This document shows positions 41,066 to 46,033 of a stretch of 64,000 bases of DNA, one piece after another. Origin of the DNA: a candidate division FCPU426 bacterium (GTDB lineage Bacteria; Oederibacteriota; Muellerivitia; Muellerivitales; Muellerivitaceae). The translations under genes were made by a program, and so were the position numbers. Within the stretch, counting starts at the first letter, position 1; each line of letters starts with the position of its first letter. Where the stretch lies: the NCBI GenBank assembly GCA_963771075.1, contig CAVYSE010000026.1, positions 32,001 through 96,000 of the forward strand, written 5' to 3'. The notes under the pieces were generated by a model. It had not been told where the DNA came from. It saw only the letters and a program-made list of their open reading frames with translations, and did not search any database.

Positions 41066-41323
41066 TCAGCCGGTCTTCTTCAGTCCCAATTTATGCTCGA
41101 TTTTGCGGACGCGTTCTTCCAGGGTTAAATTTTCCGACATCGAGCGCTTTAAAATCGAGTTCATGAGGGTTTGGTATGGGATTCCTTGTTTTTTCCCCTC
41201 CTCGATAAGCCAATGGTAAACAGTCTCATCCAGCCGGAAGGTTTTCTGAATCTTAGAACCCTTGGAAGCCAAAAGAGGGCCTCTATGAACCTTGGCTTTT
41301 GAAAAATCATATTCTTTTTTCAT
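41066..41323 (-). CDS. brnA: BrnA-family antitoxin
   Basis: MKKEYDFSKA...TFRLD...GIPYQTLMNSIL. Confidence 0.85.
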   Translation of the reverse strand: MKKEYDFSKAKVHRGPLLASKGSKIQKTFRLDETVYHWLIEEGKKQGIPYQTLMNSILKRSMSENLTLEERVRKIEHKLGLKKTG

Positions 41324-41579
41324 AGTTTTCCCGTTCCTTTCTTGTGGCTTTCCTGGCCGAGATGATTCGGATGACATCCATTTCCCGGTACGCGTAAACC
41401 ACCACCAACAGGTTTAATTTCTTTGAATACCCAAGCGCGATGAATCTTTGTTCGTGGTGTTCAATATCTTACAACACCAATTGAACGTCGGATTCCAAGA
41501 CGGATTGGGCCTCTTCAAACGAGACCCCATGTTTTATTAGATTGGAAGCGGCTTTCCGGGGATCCCAAATGACGAGCAT
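41307..41579 (-). pseudogene. brnT: BrnT-family toxin with in-frame TAA at codon 37 (not in ORF track)
   Basis: Hand translation MLVIWDPRKAASNLIKHGVSFEEAQSVL...L*DIEHHEQRFIALG...IRIISARKATRKER; stop at 41469-41471. Confidence 0.85.
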
Positions 41580-41585
41580 GAATCA

Positions 41586-41615
41586 AGTATAAACTACGTT
41601 GTAGTTACATTGCAA
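41586..41615 (-). promoter_or_regulatory. brnTA promoter (TTGCAA-N18-TATACT) with operator palindrome AACTAC-N3-GTAGTT; probably leaderless
   Basis: -10 element ends 6 nt before the toxin ATG; palindrome lies in the promoter spacer. Confidence 0.6.
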
Positions 41616-41627
41616 TGTGTTCTCCCT

Positions 41628-41690
41628 GTCCACGTTGGGTCCCCGCCATGTAGCATGCGCTTGCGCTTAGCTACATGGCCCGTCGTGGAC
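41628..41690. repeat. Island palindrome copy B with an inserted hairpin
   Basis: GTCCACGTTGGGTCCCC [GCCATGTAGC...GCTACATGGC] CCGTCGTGGAC. Confidence 0.8.
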
Positions 41691-41700
41691 GACTTTTTCA

Positions 41701-42012
41701 TCACTCGAAAGCGGAATCATCCAAAAGACGAGACCCATGAATGATCCGAAGAATATAAACCGTTTTTTGGGAGATCCGGAAAATCGTCCTGTAATCCCCA
41801 TACAAGATATGCCGATAGGCCGTCCCTAATACTTCATTTTCCGGAACAGAAGGGCATCTTTCCGGGTAGTGCTCCAAAGTGGTGATTTGTTGTTCTATTC
41901 TAGAGATGAACTTTGCCGCTTCCCGAGAACTGTCCTTGCCAATAAAATCCCAAATTTCCCTCAAATCCCCTTCGGCGGTTCGGGTGATCTTAACCTGGTA
42001 TCGAATGGGCAT
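41701..42012 (-). CDS. RelE/ParE-family toxin
   Basis: YQVKITRTAEGDLREIWDFI...YRTIFRI...VYILRIIHGSR. Confidence 0.9.
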   Translation of the reverse strand: MPIRYQVKITRTAEGDLREIWDFIGKDSSREAAKFISRIEQQITTLEHYPERCPSVPENEVLGTAYRHILYGDYRTIFRISQKTVYILRIIHGSRLLDDSAFE

Positions 42013-42274
42013 GCATGAACTCTTTCAAGAAGGCGCGAACGGGACGCACGCGGTGGGCTGTCACGTCTTTCTCGGCGGAAACAAGTTCGCGGGCAAGATT
42101 CACCGCGCTCAAATAGACTTCATAGGATTTTGAGTTCATCAATACGGCGTCAGCTTTTCCATTTACGGTTAACACAACGGGACGACCGGTCCGGTGGATT
42201 TGGTCCAATAGACTGCGGGTGTTTCGCTTCAAATCGGTCACCGACCGGATGTCCTCGGAAAATTTAATTCCCAT
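41990..42274 (-). CDS. Phd/YefM-family antitoxin
   Basis: IRSVTDLKRN...RPVVLTVNGKADAVL. Confidence 0.9.
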   Translation of the reverse strand: MGIKFSEDIRSVTDLKRNTRSLLDQIHRTGRPVVLTVNGKADAVLMNSKSYEVYLSAVNLARELVSAEKDVTAHRVRPVRAFLKEFMHAHSIPG

Positions 42275-42352
42275 AGCCGCCCCCCTTAGCTTAAGCATCT
42301 AATGTGGTGCTTAATTTAGCATCATTCAACCAAGGCTTCAACCCCTTAGGTA

Positions 42353-42378
42353 GTCCACGATGGGTCCCCGTCGTGGAC
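42353..42378. repeat. Island palindrome copy C (uninterrupted consensus)
   Basis: GTCCACGATGGGTCCCCGTCGTGGAC. Confidence 0.85.
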
Positions 42379-42392
42379 AGCTAAACTTTAGT

Positions 42393-42962
42393 TTATTTGG
42401 CCATTTTTTGTTTGAGCTCGTCGACGAATACTTGAGCTTTTTTATTTCCGTGATTGGCGGCCTTCTGAAACCATTCCATCGCTTCTTGCTCGTCCTTTGA
42501 GACTCCAAGACCCTGGTAATATAAAAGACCTATATTTCCTTCCGCATCAGAGTTTCCTTGGATAGCGGCCATTCGAAAATACTTCAACGCTTCTTGGTAA
42601 TCCTGGGTTGTTCCATGTCCAGTTAAATAAAGACCGCCAAGCGAGTTTTCGGCTTCCGGGTTTCCTTGCGCAGCTGATTTTTGATACCACTCGATGGCTT
42701 TTTGATAATCTTGATTAACCCCTTTTCCGCTTTCATACATGAAGCCAATAGCGTTTTCGGCTCTATCGTCCCCTTGTGTGGCGGCTTTTAGAAACCAATT
42801 CATAGCCTGTTGATGGTCTTGAGCGATCCCATTTCCCCCGGCATAAGCCAAGCCAATATTGAACTGGGCTTTACGGTTCCCCTGATTTGCGGCTTTTAAA
42901 TTCCATTGGAAGGCTTTTACATCATCTTCATGAACTCCATGACCCTTACTGTAAAGACCTGC
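42393..42962 (-). pseudogene. Sel1-repeat protein, 5'-truncated at the RAYT-like element end
   Basis: Sel1 repeats (G-x-GV-x-QD...KA-x-x-W-x-x-KAA-x-QG) continue upstream of the ORF-track start to ~42960, where the element terminus begins. Confidence 0.75.
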
Positions 42963-43037
42963 GAAACAACGGGGTCAAACAACGGGGTCACCTATGAAAA
43001 AGAATGTCCAGGCAAAAGCGTAGTATCACGGCCCCAA

Positions 43038-43180
43038 GTCCAACCTGAGTCTCAAAGGACTACAAGTCAGTCACCTATTCGCGGTTGTTTCACCGCACGA
43101 TAACGTTGGACCCGGCCGCTCAATCAGGCCAAGGACCTCAACTCTTGCGGGTTGTGTCAGACCCCGTCGGAGCTGGCCGG
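43038..43180 (-). ncRNA. Predicted bridge RNA (seekRNA) of the IS110 element
   Basis: Two stem-closed internal loops with guides ACGGGGUC/GGCCUGA (target) and GUUAUC/AUAGGUGA (donor junction). Confidence 0.8.
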
Positions 43181-44179
43181 GCAGTCCTCAAAAGCTTCCT
43201 TCTTTCGTAACATATGAAAGATGCTTTTCAGCATAGCCCTTGCTACTGCTATTCGTCCCGCGTTATTCCCATGCTTCTTCTTCACCCTCGTGTATAAGGT
43301 CCCATACCGTCGGGTTTTGCGAATGGCATGAAGCGAGTTCTCAACCAATATCCAGCGAATCCATTTAGAACCCTGTTTGGTGATGTGGCCGTTGTGGCTT
43401 TTTCCCCCTGATGCGTGAACACTGGGGACCAATCCACCATAAGAACATAGATGTTCCGCGTCCGGGAACCGGCGAATATCCCCAATCTCGCTCAAAATTA
43501 ATAAAGCCGAAAAGGCACCCACGCCTGGCATGGTCATCATCAGCTGGGCTTCCGGGCTTTCTGCTGCCATTTTCTTGATCACCTCTTCTGATTTGGCGAT
43601 CTCTTGGCCTAGTTCCCGGATTACTTCCATATATCCGTCCAGTTCCAAACGGTAGCAAGGCCGGGTACCTACCGTGGCAAGTTCGCGGAAGTTCTTTATT
43701 CCGAATCGGTTTTTAGTAACGGGTTCGATTCCCGCCTTGGTCATGACCGAAGTCATCCGGTTTTTGGCTTGTGTTCTCAATTGCACCAGGGAAGCCCGGT
43801 ACCTAAGGATTTCCCGTAAGTCGCGGATCTCTCGGGGTGGCACATAGGCTCGTGGCAGCAGATCCACCCGCAAAAGTTGAGCCAGGATTCCCGAATCAAT
43901 TTTATCCGTCTTGATCTTGGCCGAGGCTATGGCTTTGACCTTTTGGGGGTGGGCCAATACCAGGTTGGGGAATCGATCCTCGATGAGTTCGTAAAAGTGA
44001 TACCAATGACCTGTGGCTTCTACTACGACCTGGCTACTCACGGGTTGCTTCTTGAAATAAGCCTTTAAAGTATCCGCGTCGTTCTTCAGATCGACTTGTT
44101 CCAGCACCTTTCCTTTCTCATTCACTCTCGTGACGTAGGATGTTTTCTGGTGTAGGTCTACTCCGATATACTGTCCCAC
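43157..44179 (-). CDS. IS110-family DEDD recombinase/transposase
   Basis: IGVDLH, VEATG, KTDKID (DEDD RuvC-like domain); PGVG and HASGGK serine loop. Confidence 0.95.
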   Translation of the reverse strand: MGQYIGVDLHQKTSYVTRVNEKGKVLEQVDLKNDADTLKAYFKKQPVSSQVVVEATGHWYHFYELIEDRFPNLVLAHPQKVKAIASAKIKTDKIDSGILAQLLRVDLLPRAYVPPREIRDLREILRYRASLVQLRTQAKNRMTSVMTKAGIEPVTKNRFGIKNFRELATVGTRPCYRLELDGYMEVIRELGQEIAKSEEVIKKMAAESPEAQLMMTMPGVGAFSALLILSEIGDIRRFPDAEHLCSYGGLVPSVHASGGKSHNGHITKQGSKWIRWILVENSLHAIRKTRRYGTLYTRVKKKHGNNAGRIAVARAMLKSIFHMLRKKEAFEDCPASSDGV

Positions 44180-44421
44180 GGCTGCACCTCCTAAGCGTTT
44201 TGCACCACCTGCAAAGGTGAGTGCCTTTTCGACTCTGGGTTTATCCTAGAGCCTCGTCCCACTTAAGTGGAGACGCTCTACGCTTGGAGCTCTGCAGCCT
44301 TTTTCATGTTATCAGGTCTTAATTTTATATTATCTATCCGCGCTTTGAACCGCGTCTCTCCCTCCATCCGCTTCTTTATTATCGCTATCCGGTTCCCCAC
44401 GGCCGAATATTTTACACCAAA

Positions 44422-45261
44422 TTATTCCGCGATCTCTTTCAGGCCCAGGTGCGCTCTTTTTCGAAGTAGGTACATACCAACGTCCCTCGCCTCGTTGGCC
44501 TTGTGGAACTTAGTCGTGATTTCCTTTTCCTCAACCTTATATGCTTTCGAGACCTTTTGGATAACATCTTCCGCCGTACGTTTCTCGATCCGATGGTGTT
44601 TCATCGGTATTTCCGGGTCTTTCTTATCCAACAACCCCTTTAATTTCTCCTTTAGACCCTCACCCCCGTAATAAACCCCACCCTCCATCTTTTCCCATGG
44701 CGATTCCTTTTTTCGCAACCCTTCCAATACGAACTTCCGATAGGCTCTTTGGGCTTGCTTGGATTGCCTGCCAAATTGCCCCAATACCCAATCCACCTCA
44801 AACCAAGGTTCTTTCTTCTCGATCCCGGCCGTCGCCCGATAGCTGCTCCACTTCCATTTCCGGGGATGTTTCACCAACCGCGCTCTTACCGGGTTCAAGA
44901 CCACATATCGGCACAACTCCAACAAATGGGTTCCCTTTTCCACATGGATCGCCTTATAACGGCCTTGAAAGAGATGCCCTACCCGGTTATTCCGTCGATT
45001 GAATTTCTGGGTATAAACACCATTCAGGTGCCGTATGGCCCGTGACAAGTTGGCTTCCGGCGTCTCCACCAACAAGTGGTAATGATTATCCATCAATACC
45101 CAGGCATGGCACATCACATGATGATCCTCCACGACTTGGGCCAATACCCACAAAAACAATTCCCGGTCCTTATCCGACCGGACAATGTTTTTCCGCTCGT
45201 TCCCCCGCGAGGTAACGTGATAAACAGCGCCTTCATAATGCACTCTTAACGGTCTAGCCAT
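44422..45261 (-). CDS. REP-associated-type tyrosine (Y1/HUH) transposase with DnaA-C-like HTH cut by a premature TAA
   Basis: MARPLR...YHVTSRGN, LMDNHYHLL, GHLFQGRY, RYVVLNPVRA, WSSY; HTH continues past the stop (EIAE*FGVKYSAV...). Confidence 0.88.
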   Translation of the reverse strand: MARPLRVHYEGAVYHVTSRGNERKNIVRSDKDRELFLWVLAQVVEDHHVMCHAWVLMDNHYHLLVETPEANLSRAIRHLNGVYTQKFNRRNNRVGHLFQGRYKAIHVEKGTHLLELCRYVVLNPVRARLVKHPRKWKWSSYRATAGIEKKEPWFEVDWVLGQFGRQSKQAQRAYRKFVLEGLRKKESPWEKMEGGVYYGGEGLKEKLKGLLDKKDPEIPMKHHRIEKRTAEDVIQKVSKAYKVEEKEITTKFHKANEARDVGMYLLRKRAHLGLKEIAE

Positions 45262-45377
45262 TTGCGGATCTTATCACAAAGATAATATAAAATGAAGACC
45301 TGACCCCGTTTCGTGACCCCGTTTCGCAAAATATGGATTCCATCGGCTAGAGAAAGGCATGCCTTTTCTTTAAAAAA

Positions 45378-45704
45378 TTAAACAGTAACCTTCCCACCGT
45401 GTTTAAATTTGAATCCAATCTCTAAATCTCCCCCGCAAGCTGTTGCGATGTTAGAAAGCAACGGTAACGAGGTATCGCGTTGATCTGTGCCACTTTCAAT
45501 TCGAGCAATCGCGCTTTGCGAGGTTTTAATCTTTTTAGCCAGACCCTGTTGACTCAAGCGAGCTCTCAATCGCGCCATTTTAACAATCTGGGCAATTTTA
45601 GATTTGGCTTTATTTTGCTCATAATAAAAACGAACCTCCGGATCTTTAATCAACTCTTTGAAAAAAGAGTCGGCGGATTCGTGGTATTTTTTGTTTGTCT
45701 TCAT
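45378..45704 (-). CDS. HigA-like XRE antitoxin
   Basis: LSQQGLAKKIKTSQSAIARIESG; overlaps the toxin stop. Confidence 0.85.
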   Translation of the reverse strand: MKTNKKYHESADSFFKELIKDPEVRFYYEQNKAKSKIAQIVKMARLRARLSQQGLAKKIKTSQSAIARIESGTDQRDTSLPLLSNIATACGGDLEIGFKFKHGGKVTV

Positions 45705-46033
45705 GGCAAGACCTCTTTCATTCTTTTTTCGGCTAACCAAAGGTCGTTCTTTGGCGTCTTTTGAGTCGTCTTTTTAAAAACGTGTAACCAGATCATAAAA
45801 TTTTTATCAACCAAAACGTAAGCAATCCTGAATCCTCCACTAGGCGCAGAAAACTTTATTTCCCAAAGTTTTCCACTCAAAGATCTAAAGATAACGTCAT
45901 GGCAGTTTAACCCTTTGTCTTTTATCCCTTCATAAACATCTACAAAGCGGGCCTGATTCACTTTGGATAAATCTAAAATATATTCTTTAACGGGTCGGCG
46001 CCCTGATGGGGTTTTGTAATAATCGATTTACAT
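45701..46033 (-). pseudogene. HigB/Gp49-like RelE toxin with TAA at codon 2
   Basis: Hand translation M*IDYYKTPSGRRPVKEYI...GKLWEIK...LHVFKKTTQKTP; stop at 46028-46030. Confidence 0.8.

Follow-up and report, generated by a model that had tools for sequence, protein, structure and literature searches.

Bridge RNAs at the right end have been predicted for 93% of IS1111 elements (PMC11208160), and the characterised IS1111 RNAs map downstream of the recombinase gene (PMC11187229). Similar to ISEc11, ISKpn4, ISPst6 and ISPa11, as far as these are described in the text of PMC11187229, the element reported here has subterminal repeats with 7-bp and 3-bp extensions, carries its longer end downstream of the gene, shows the same order of target matches, inserts into the repeat of another element and is predicted to form a promoter at its circle junction. 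In contrast to these four elements, whose RNAs lie downstream of the gene, it has a predicted RNA with a coding first stem and a coding left target guide; the target differs as well, and the proteins are only distantly related.

With IS621 and ISCro4/IS622 (PMC11208160, PMC11208158, 10.1101/2025.05.14.653916) the element shares the composite active site of DEDD residues and a serine, the fold, a target loop that precedes the donor loop, a left guide of 7 + 2 and a right guide of 5 + 2 + 2 positions, and handshake bases in the post-exchange setting. It differs from them in a protein identity of about 20%, in an RNA at the right end that is, by comparison, read in the opposite sense to the gene, in a core of CA instead of CT, in having no 5' stem-loop outside the gene, in a left guide that pairs with the first core base only and in a covarying 3' hairpin. 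The IS1111 members IS4321 and IS5075 likewise insert into terminal inverted repeats of other mobile elements, namely Tn21-family transposons, whereas the host here is a TIRYT element, with a Y1 transposase of subclass 2.1. In TnpB systems the RNA scaffold overlaps the nuclease gene, and the guide comes from the flank. The likeness lies in a guide RNA (omega RNA or reRNA) whose sequence overlaps the final codons of the protein it serves (10.64898/2026.09.09.750255, PMC4615843); TnpB is, however, an unrelated nuclease, and in the present element the programmable guide itself is coding. Within the IS110 tree (PMC11208160, Supplementary Table 1), cluster 54fc70983f40b21c13, for which no ISfinder member is listed, shares by eye the clade motif around the second and third aspartates and likely belongs to the same broad clade.

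The bridge RNA mechanism is known, and the clade-wide coding guide and an IS1111-type clade aimed at TIRYT repeats were not found in the papers searched. Term searches returned no coding-guide overlap in the text of PMC11208160, PMC11187229, PMC13626964, PMC11208158, 10.1101/2024.06.21.599552, 10.1101/2025.10.25.684509, 10.1101/2025.05.14.653916, 10.64898/2026.10.21.760802 and 10.64898/2026.08.14.744561, where figures, some supplements and subscription papers of the IS110 literature may show it. TIRYT targeting by IS1111-type elements was not found in the same literature either, whose figures and some supplements may show it, and three clade motifs were absent from the text supplements of Durrant et al. 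The RNA search of these authors took in 50 bp of 3' coding sequence, and their models may cover such overlaps without comment.

Insertion sequence and recombinase

All coordinates are positions in the window, the whole stretch of 64,000 nucleotides that was analysed; the element, its gene and the predicted RNA all lie on the minus strand.

42991 to 44314, minus strand: complete insertion sequence of 1,324 bp, counting the 2-nt core once; ends set by seven full copies with differing flanks
44313 to 44314, minus strand: left core TG (CA on the guide-matching strand)
42989 to 42990, minus strand: right core TG
44299 to 44307, minus strand: left subterminal inverted repeat, 7 bp inward of the element end
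42994 to 43002, minus strand: right subterminal inverted repeat, 3 bp inward of the element end
44306 to 44311, minus strand: predicted -10 box of the circle-junction promoter, 4/6 match, preceded by TG
43005 to 43010, minus strand: predicted -35 box, 5/6 match, 17 nt from the -10 box after end joining
43157 to 44179, minus strand: 340-aa DEDD recombinase gene with D8, E54, D92, D95 and S257

Seven full copies with different flanks occur in the genome, and their proteins are 100% identical. The 2-nt core stands at both ends, and taking out the element rebuilds the empty site exactly, without further target duplication, as in the IS110 family. The subterminal repeats measure 9 bp and leave extensions of 7 bp on the left and 3 bp on the right, the rule given for IS1111 (PMC11187229). 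The right end (166 bp) is longer than the left end (135 bp) and carries the predicted guide RNA on the downstream side. Moreover, the target match on the top strand lies 5' of the bottom-strand match, the order reported for IS1111 (PMC11187229). Judged by its sequence, the element is an IS110-family insertion sequence of IS1111 layout.

The recombinase scored above the Pfam cut-offs for both IS110 domains (PF01548 and PF02371) and reached 237.9 bits against NF033542 (cut-off 140). Across 54 sequences, residues E54, D92, D95 and S257 were invariant and D8 nearly so, and an alignment to IS621 places them on its catalytic residues. The predicted structure has a mean pLDDT of 87.5, and its best fold match was IS621 (Foldseek E-value 8e-15, TM-score 0.67, ~20% identity). 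Its last helix stops at residue 326, and residues 335–340 have a pLDDT below 50, which may partly stem from the unalignable tails in the alignment; the C-terminal tail is predicted to be disordered. The length of 340 aa, which had been called compact, is ordinary for a family of 300–460 aa (PMC11208160) in which IS621 has 326 aa (PMC11208158).

When the ends are joined, the exact -35 box is present in 28 of 42 relatives, compared with five of six positions in this copy. No promoter-like site was found inside the element on its own strand, so one transcript likely serves both gene and RNA. The circle junction had 0 matches in the genome assembly, and the joint was found in none of the contigs from four sequencing runs. 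Two contigs from an RNA run on peat, one of 151 nt spanning the equivalent of 43049–43199 in a close relative and one of 378 nt that crosses the left end and continues into the flank, are of a kind that cannot show transcription.

Further traces in the same genome are two partial copies on contig C18 and right-end remnants on C6 and C1. The partial copies (C18:281538-283126) point towards each other, with a TIRYT right end on either side; one is rich in indels and is likely a fold-back or low-quality assembly. The remnants are 41 and 58 bp long (C6:2793-2833, C1:118275-118331); the first lies amid repeats that belong to a different TIRYT class, and contigs of run X4 show it as a loose end. One copy (C28:109776-109640) contains a 136-bp tandem duplication bounded precisely by the right-guide core of the RNA gene and the core at the right end. 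The element may have recombined with a half-site mimic in its own RNA gene, or the duplication may be an artefact of assembly. Another IS110 element, distant in sequence (27% identity), is present in two copies (C5:85815-86813, C9:2070-3068).

Target site

42984 to 42988, minus strand: left target, the outermost 5 bp of the TIRYT terminal repeat that the element interrupts
44315 to 44335, minus strand: inner part of the interrupted TIRYT terminal repeat, with the right target at its edge
44422 to 45261, minus strand: Y1 (HUH) transposase with a DnaA_C-like HTH, belonging to the host TIRYT element
45280 to 45307, plus strand: other, empty terminal repeat of the TIRYT element

The element is inserted 5 bp from the tip of a TIRYT terminal repeat, and the reconstituted site is identical to the unoccupied repeat on the far side of the Y1 gene. 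Elements of the TIRYT class have terminal repeats with the consensus GGGG[AT][CG]A (10.1101/279083), and the host element fits this description with a Y1 transposase carrying a C-terminal HTH between repeats that start with this motif. The genome contains at least 20 matches to Y1 transposases and four classes of TIRYT repeats, which have a common TGACCC tip and different inner sequences. Among nine left junctions, five lie in the repeat class of the window, one lies in a second class and one resembles a third; the remaining two (C18:92152 and C21) have no clear TIRYT context. Occupancy of the motifs, counted with chance sites included, tracked the right guide: two motifs that nearly match it were occupied at 5 of 21 and 3 of 16 sites, two others at 0 of 12 and 0 of 11. 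In a relative with 88% identity (L037:489-614), the right target guide fits another TIRYT repeat class of this genome, the one with 0 of 12 motif sites occupied here.

The targets of relatives fit the TIRYT consensus exactly in 27 of 51 loci and nearly in 39. A Y1 gene was present within the fetched flanks of only three of the 51, so that TIRYT targeting in the relatives is read from the motif. It is likely, judging from the guides and the repeats they match, that the predicted RNA directs the recombinase to TIRYT end repeats.

A fragment of 96 bp from the TIRYT right end (44315-44407) is scattered without its gene over C3, C7, C18, C21 and C28, in several cases between cassette-like stretches. 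The genes flanking the TIRYT element (41066-42851 and 45378-45961) include a Sel1-repeat gene, an assignment that was tested, and small gene pairs which we take, by resemblance, to be toxin-antitoxin-like.

Predicted bridge RNA

43170 to 43180, minus strand: target-loop outer stem, 5' arm (coding), supported by covariation
43159 to 43167, minus strand: left target guide, 7 nt and the first core base
43134 to 43158, minus strand: target-loop inner hairpin, of varying length among relatives
43123 to 43131, minus strand: right target guide region (guide 43131-43127, core 43126-43125, handshake AU 43124-43123 matching the donor)
43112 to 43121, minus strand: target-loop outer stem, 3' arm, supported by covariation
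43109 to 43111, minus strand: donor-loop closing helix, 5' arm (partner 43068-43066)
43098 to 43106, minus strand: left donor guide, placed by guide-flank matching
43081 to 43096, minus strand: donor-loop inner hairpin, from comparison of relatives
43070 to 43078, minus strand: right donor guide region (guide 43078-43074, core 43073-43072, handshake AC 43071-43070 matching the target)
43048 to 43061, minus strand: extra 3' hairpin, covarying between two forms among relatives

The preliminary description had proposed a bridge RNA of two loops with four guides at this right end, and every motif it named was found where it had placed it on the minus strand. The arms of the outer stem (43180-43170 and 43121-43112) enclose ACGGGGTC (43167-43160), the inner pairing CAAC/GTTG (43154-43151 with 43142-43139) and GGCCTGA (43130-43124). 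In the second loop, GTCCAAC (43111-43105) and GTTGGAC (43044-43038) are complementary to each other and enclose GTTATC (43104-43099), the donor hairpin GCGGT/ACCGC (43096-43092 with 43085-43081) and ATAGGTGA (43078-43071). The guides are arranged as in the IS621 template of five guide, two core and two handshake bases. At its ninth base, the U of the stop codon, the left target guide mismatches the second core base.

As a single sequence, the region folds only slightly better than its shuffles (z -1.9; 8 of 200 shuffles equally good), and the case is therefore made by comparison. The naked fold of this copy pairs the guides with each other and favours the long donor stem over the short helix (probability about 0.4 versus 0). 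Rfam contained no matching family; the search returned merely a 15-nt tmRNA fragment far below the cut-off.

Comparison with relatives

A scan of genome contigs with the single protein gave no matches; an alignment-based scan recovered the relatives. In total, 181 relative loci were fetched, and 163 rows, window included, were aligned to residue 324 and the stop. The right-end anchor was present in 111, from which 51 distinct loci of at least 43.5% identity were aligned after exclusion of minus-strand rows, duplicates, L020, L118, L047, L078 and L066; 50 of these have sufficient right flank and 42 a usable left end.

Across the 51 loci, two-sided changes were observed at eight of the nine pairs of the outer stem, at four of the five pairs of the donor hairpin and at two of the three pairs of the short donor-loop helix. 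Altogether 92.5% of the cells pair, compared with 80.6% after shuffling (0 of 500 as good) and 28–43% when the arms were slid against each other. The guides follow the DNA of their own loci. For the left target guide, 308 of 400 positions match the own flanks (50 loci), whereas permutation gives 263.8 ± 5.6; the corresponding figures are 180 of 210 against 80.3 ± 8.1 for the right target guide (42 loci), 250 of 336 against 204.0 ± 5.2 for the left donor guide (42 loci) and 95 of 100 against 70.9 ± 2.2 for the donor-loop handshake, with 0 of 5,000 permutations as good in each case; because the relatives share kinship, these figures overstate the effect. The match of the right donor guide is circular, since this guide served as the anchor, and was not counted. 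Changed targets in separate lineages are accompanied by matching changed guides. The two-loop design is supported by this covariation with target and donor; guide-target covariation had been suggested as a check.

The handshake of the target loop is near-invariant at both positions and gave no permutation signal (80 versus 79.0). Its second position equals the donor in 37 of 40 loci and the target in none, and the second position of the donor loop equals the target in 38 of 40 and the donor in none; the first position of the donor loop fits in 10 of 12. In IS621 this post-exchange setting promotes strand exchange (PMC11208158). A core of three nucleotides (TCA) had been proposed. Since 12 of 42 relatives carry different bases behind TG at their two ends, the shared core comprises 2 nt (CA/TG), and the handshake bases come next.

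Other details of the fold were modified. The arms of the long donor stem, GTCCAAC and GTTGGAC, are complementary in this copy and its two nearest relatives; family-wide, at least 6 bp form in only 10 of the 51 loci, and the stem was rejected as a family feature (mean 4.6 bp versus 4.2 bp shuffled). A short GUC/GAC helix directly behind the donor guide has at least 3 bp in 37 of the 51. The extra hairpin recurs in 33 of 51 relatives, as an A-U form in 17, as a G-C form in 14 and unpaired in two. The reported 8/8 match of the left guide holds for this copy, and the seven other right junctions with outside flank match at 6, 6, 6, 6, 6, 7 and 7 of 8 positions. Such scores arise because the outermost guide positions lie opposite DNA beyond the repeat, where matches are poor: among 43 cases, positions -8, -7 and -6 match in 8, 12 and 25, positions -4 to -1 in 40–42. 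In L107, L026, L027, L028 and L024 the left guide is 1–2 nt longer, and the stop codon itself lies inside the guide.

Overlap of gene and guide

43157 to 43180, minus strand: overlap, in which the codons P334–V340 and the stop double as left target guide and outer-stem 5' arm (from ORF and motif positions)

The open reading frame 44179-43157 ends with P-A-S-S-D-G-V-stop, and D338-G339-V340-stop occupy 43168-43157. Codons 334–340 and the stop fill 43180-43157, and the left target guide doubles as the last codons, as the preliminary description had noted. Its proposal that retargeting alters the C-terminus is borne out by natural cases in several lineages of relatives: tails of P-G-V go with a GGGT target and tails of L-G-A or L-R-A with a GAGC target (L023, L029, L033 and L035), and S-G-S is opposed to I-G-T in L125 and L076. 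As the tail follows the sequence of the RNA, retargeting changes the C-terminus, likely without consequence.

The overlap is not peculiar to this element, as had been assumed, but is the majority state of the clade. Of the 51 loci, 33 have a coding left guide (and 11 of these a wholly coding target loop), seven have only the stem or part of the guide within the gene, and 11 have no overlap; some overlap is thus present in 40. Of 88 loci in a wider set, 57 have a coding guide, 18 have only the stem or part of the guide in the gene and 13 have neither, with some overlap in 75; guide positions are less certain here, as in rows outside the 51 loci they were deduced from the stem alone, and L118 is doubtful. 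All three reading frames are used (17, 12 and 10 loci), so that the same RNA yields tails as different as PASSDGV, GQRPGVMAG and PAPWGHNL. In 71 of 120 proteins the residue at the first guide codon is P (31), R (19), H (10), Q (6), L (4) or C (1), with all five CNN amino acids present. In the 12 closest proteins residue 338 is E, D, A or K, a variation we attribute to loose constraint on those left-guide positions whose DNA partner lies beyond the TIRYT repeat. A quick tree of 82 proteins, restricted to the fetched relatives and accompanied by long-branch warnings, required 20 changes among five overlap states; the non-overlapping loci include one branch of eight. Changes of frame, repeated losses and the predicted disorder of the tail speak against the implied constraint of the overlap on retargeting. 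Together with the variable tails and the natural retargeting they point to selection on the RNA.

The overlap is nevertheless not wholly neutral. A stop beyond the core of the right guide occurred in 0 of 40 cases in the real frame, compared with 34 of 80 in the other frames, which suggests some selection on the length or position of the tail. This limit fits either selection for short tails or the keeping of ribosomes out of the donor loop.

Proposed mechanism and alternatives

The observations are best explained by a standard IS1111-type cycle in which the 3' end of the recombinase message supplies the bridge RNA and the peptide tail plays no active part, a reading that we consider probable. 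By analogy with IS621, ISEc11 and relatives, the element would copy out as a circle, whose joined ends would build a sigma-70 promoter and place gene and RNA on one transcript; IS1111 RNAs are thought to come from such a junction transcript (PMC11187229). The RNA may be used untrimmed or be cut from the 3' part of the message, with its 5' end within the last eight codons. Recombinase dimers on the target and donor loops would then cut beside the CA core via Ser257 and exchange strands, and the handshake bases would favour insertion. From the comparison of relatives, the folded protein appears to end near residue 330, and the stop codon may drift unconstrained anywhere from the RNA start to the core of the right guide; selection would act on the RNA, the tail would be a by-product, and the 24-nt run of the gene into the RNA is likely passive read-through.

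Alternatively, the overlap may be functional: the recombinase would bind the target loop on its own message, and translation and use of the guide would compete. As variants, a terminating ribosome could unfold the stem, or the bound protein could block termination or direct trimming, leading to self-repression or to the newly made protein being loaded in cis with its own guide. The prevalence of the overlap in both sets of loci, the stop that never passes the right-guide core and the likelihood of one transcript for both products are compatible with such a role, and TnpB obtains its guide from the overlapping message that encodes it (10.64898/2026.09.09.750255). We nonetheless regard a functional overlap as unlikely, as 11 of the 51 loci, including the branch of eight, manage without it, frame and extent shift often, and short tails may be favoured for ordinary reasons. 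Extended IS621 RNAs moreover remain active at about half efficiency (PMC13626964), so that no special processing is needed. In its fullest form, to which we give the same low weight, the message itself would be the bridge RNA: the ribosome would terminate in the target loop, and the new protein would capture the loop of its own transcript, which would couple translation to guide loading and self-repression, while selection would keep ribosomes away from the donor loop. If true, a coding programmable guide would be a regulatory design common to a TIRYT-hunting branch of IS1111.

It is far less probable that the target loop works alone as a short seekRNA and that recognition of the donor ends depends mainly on protein contacts with the subterminal repeats and on the flanking target halves, a view put forward for ISEc11. 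IS1111 proteins do co-purify mostly with RNAs of 82–96 nt that carry the target matches (PMC11187229), and the matches of the left donor guide are the looser ones; yet this guide and the donor-loop handshake covary with the ends, and the donor-loop helices show two-sided changes. That the matches reflect chance or self-similarity and the protein alone chooses the site is hardly credible, even with short guides, a weak folding z-score and no Rfam family, since guides follow changed targets in separate lineages and the right guide of L037 fits the TIRYT class left unoccupied here.

Implications and a more distant case

Intergenic-only surveys such as 10.64898/2026.10.21.760802, as its text describes the approach, would likely truncate such RNAs, leaving out their first stem and left guide. 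For building a system of this kind, the RNA would have to be taken from inside the gene, and gene and guide be kept apart. Natural retargeting between repeat classes offers a clean natural data set for the rules of core, handshake and guides, here for a predicted right-end RNA of about 115–135 nt with a CA core. As a tool, the element would be one candidate orthologue among thousands. In a more distant IS110 element of the cultured Rhizobium johnstonii 3841 (WP_011649142.1, 41% identity; L184:1680-1780), the last codons also appear, by eye, to contain the 5' arm of the target-loop stem, likely an overlap of the stem only.
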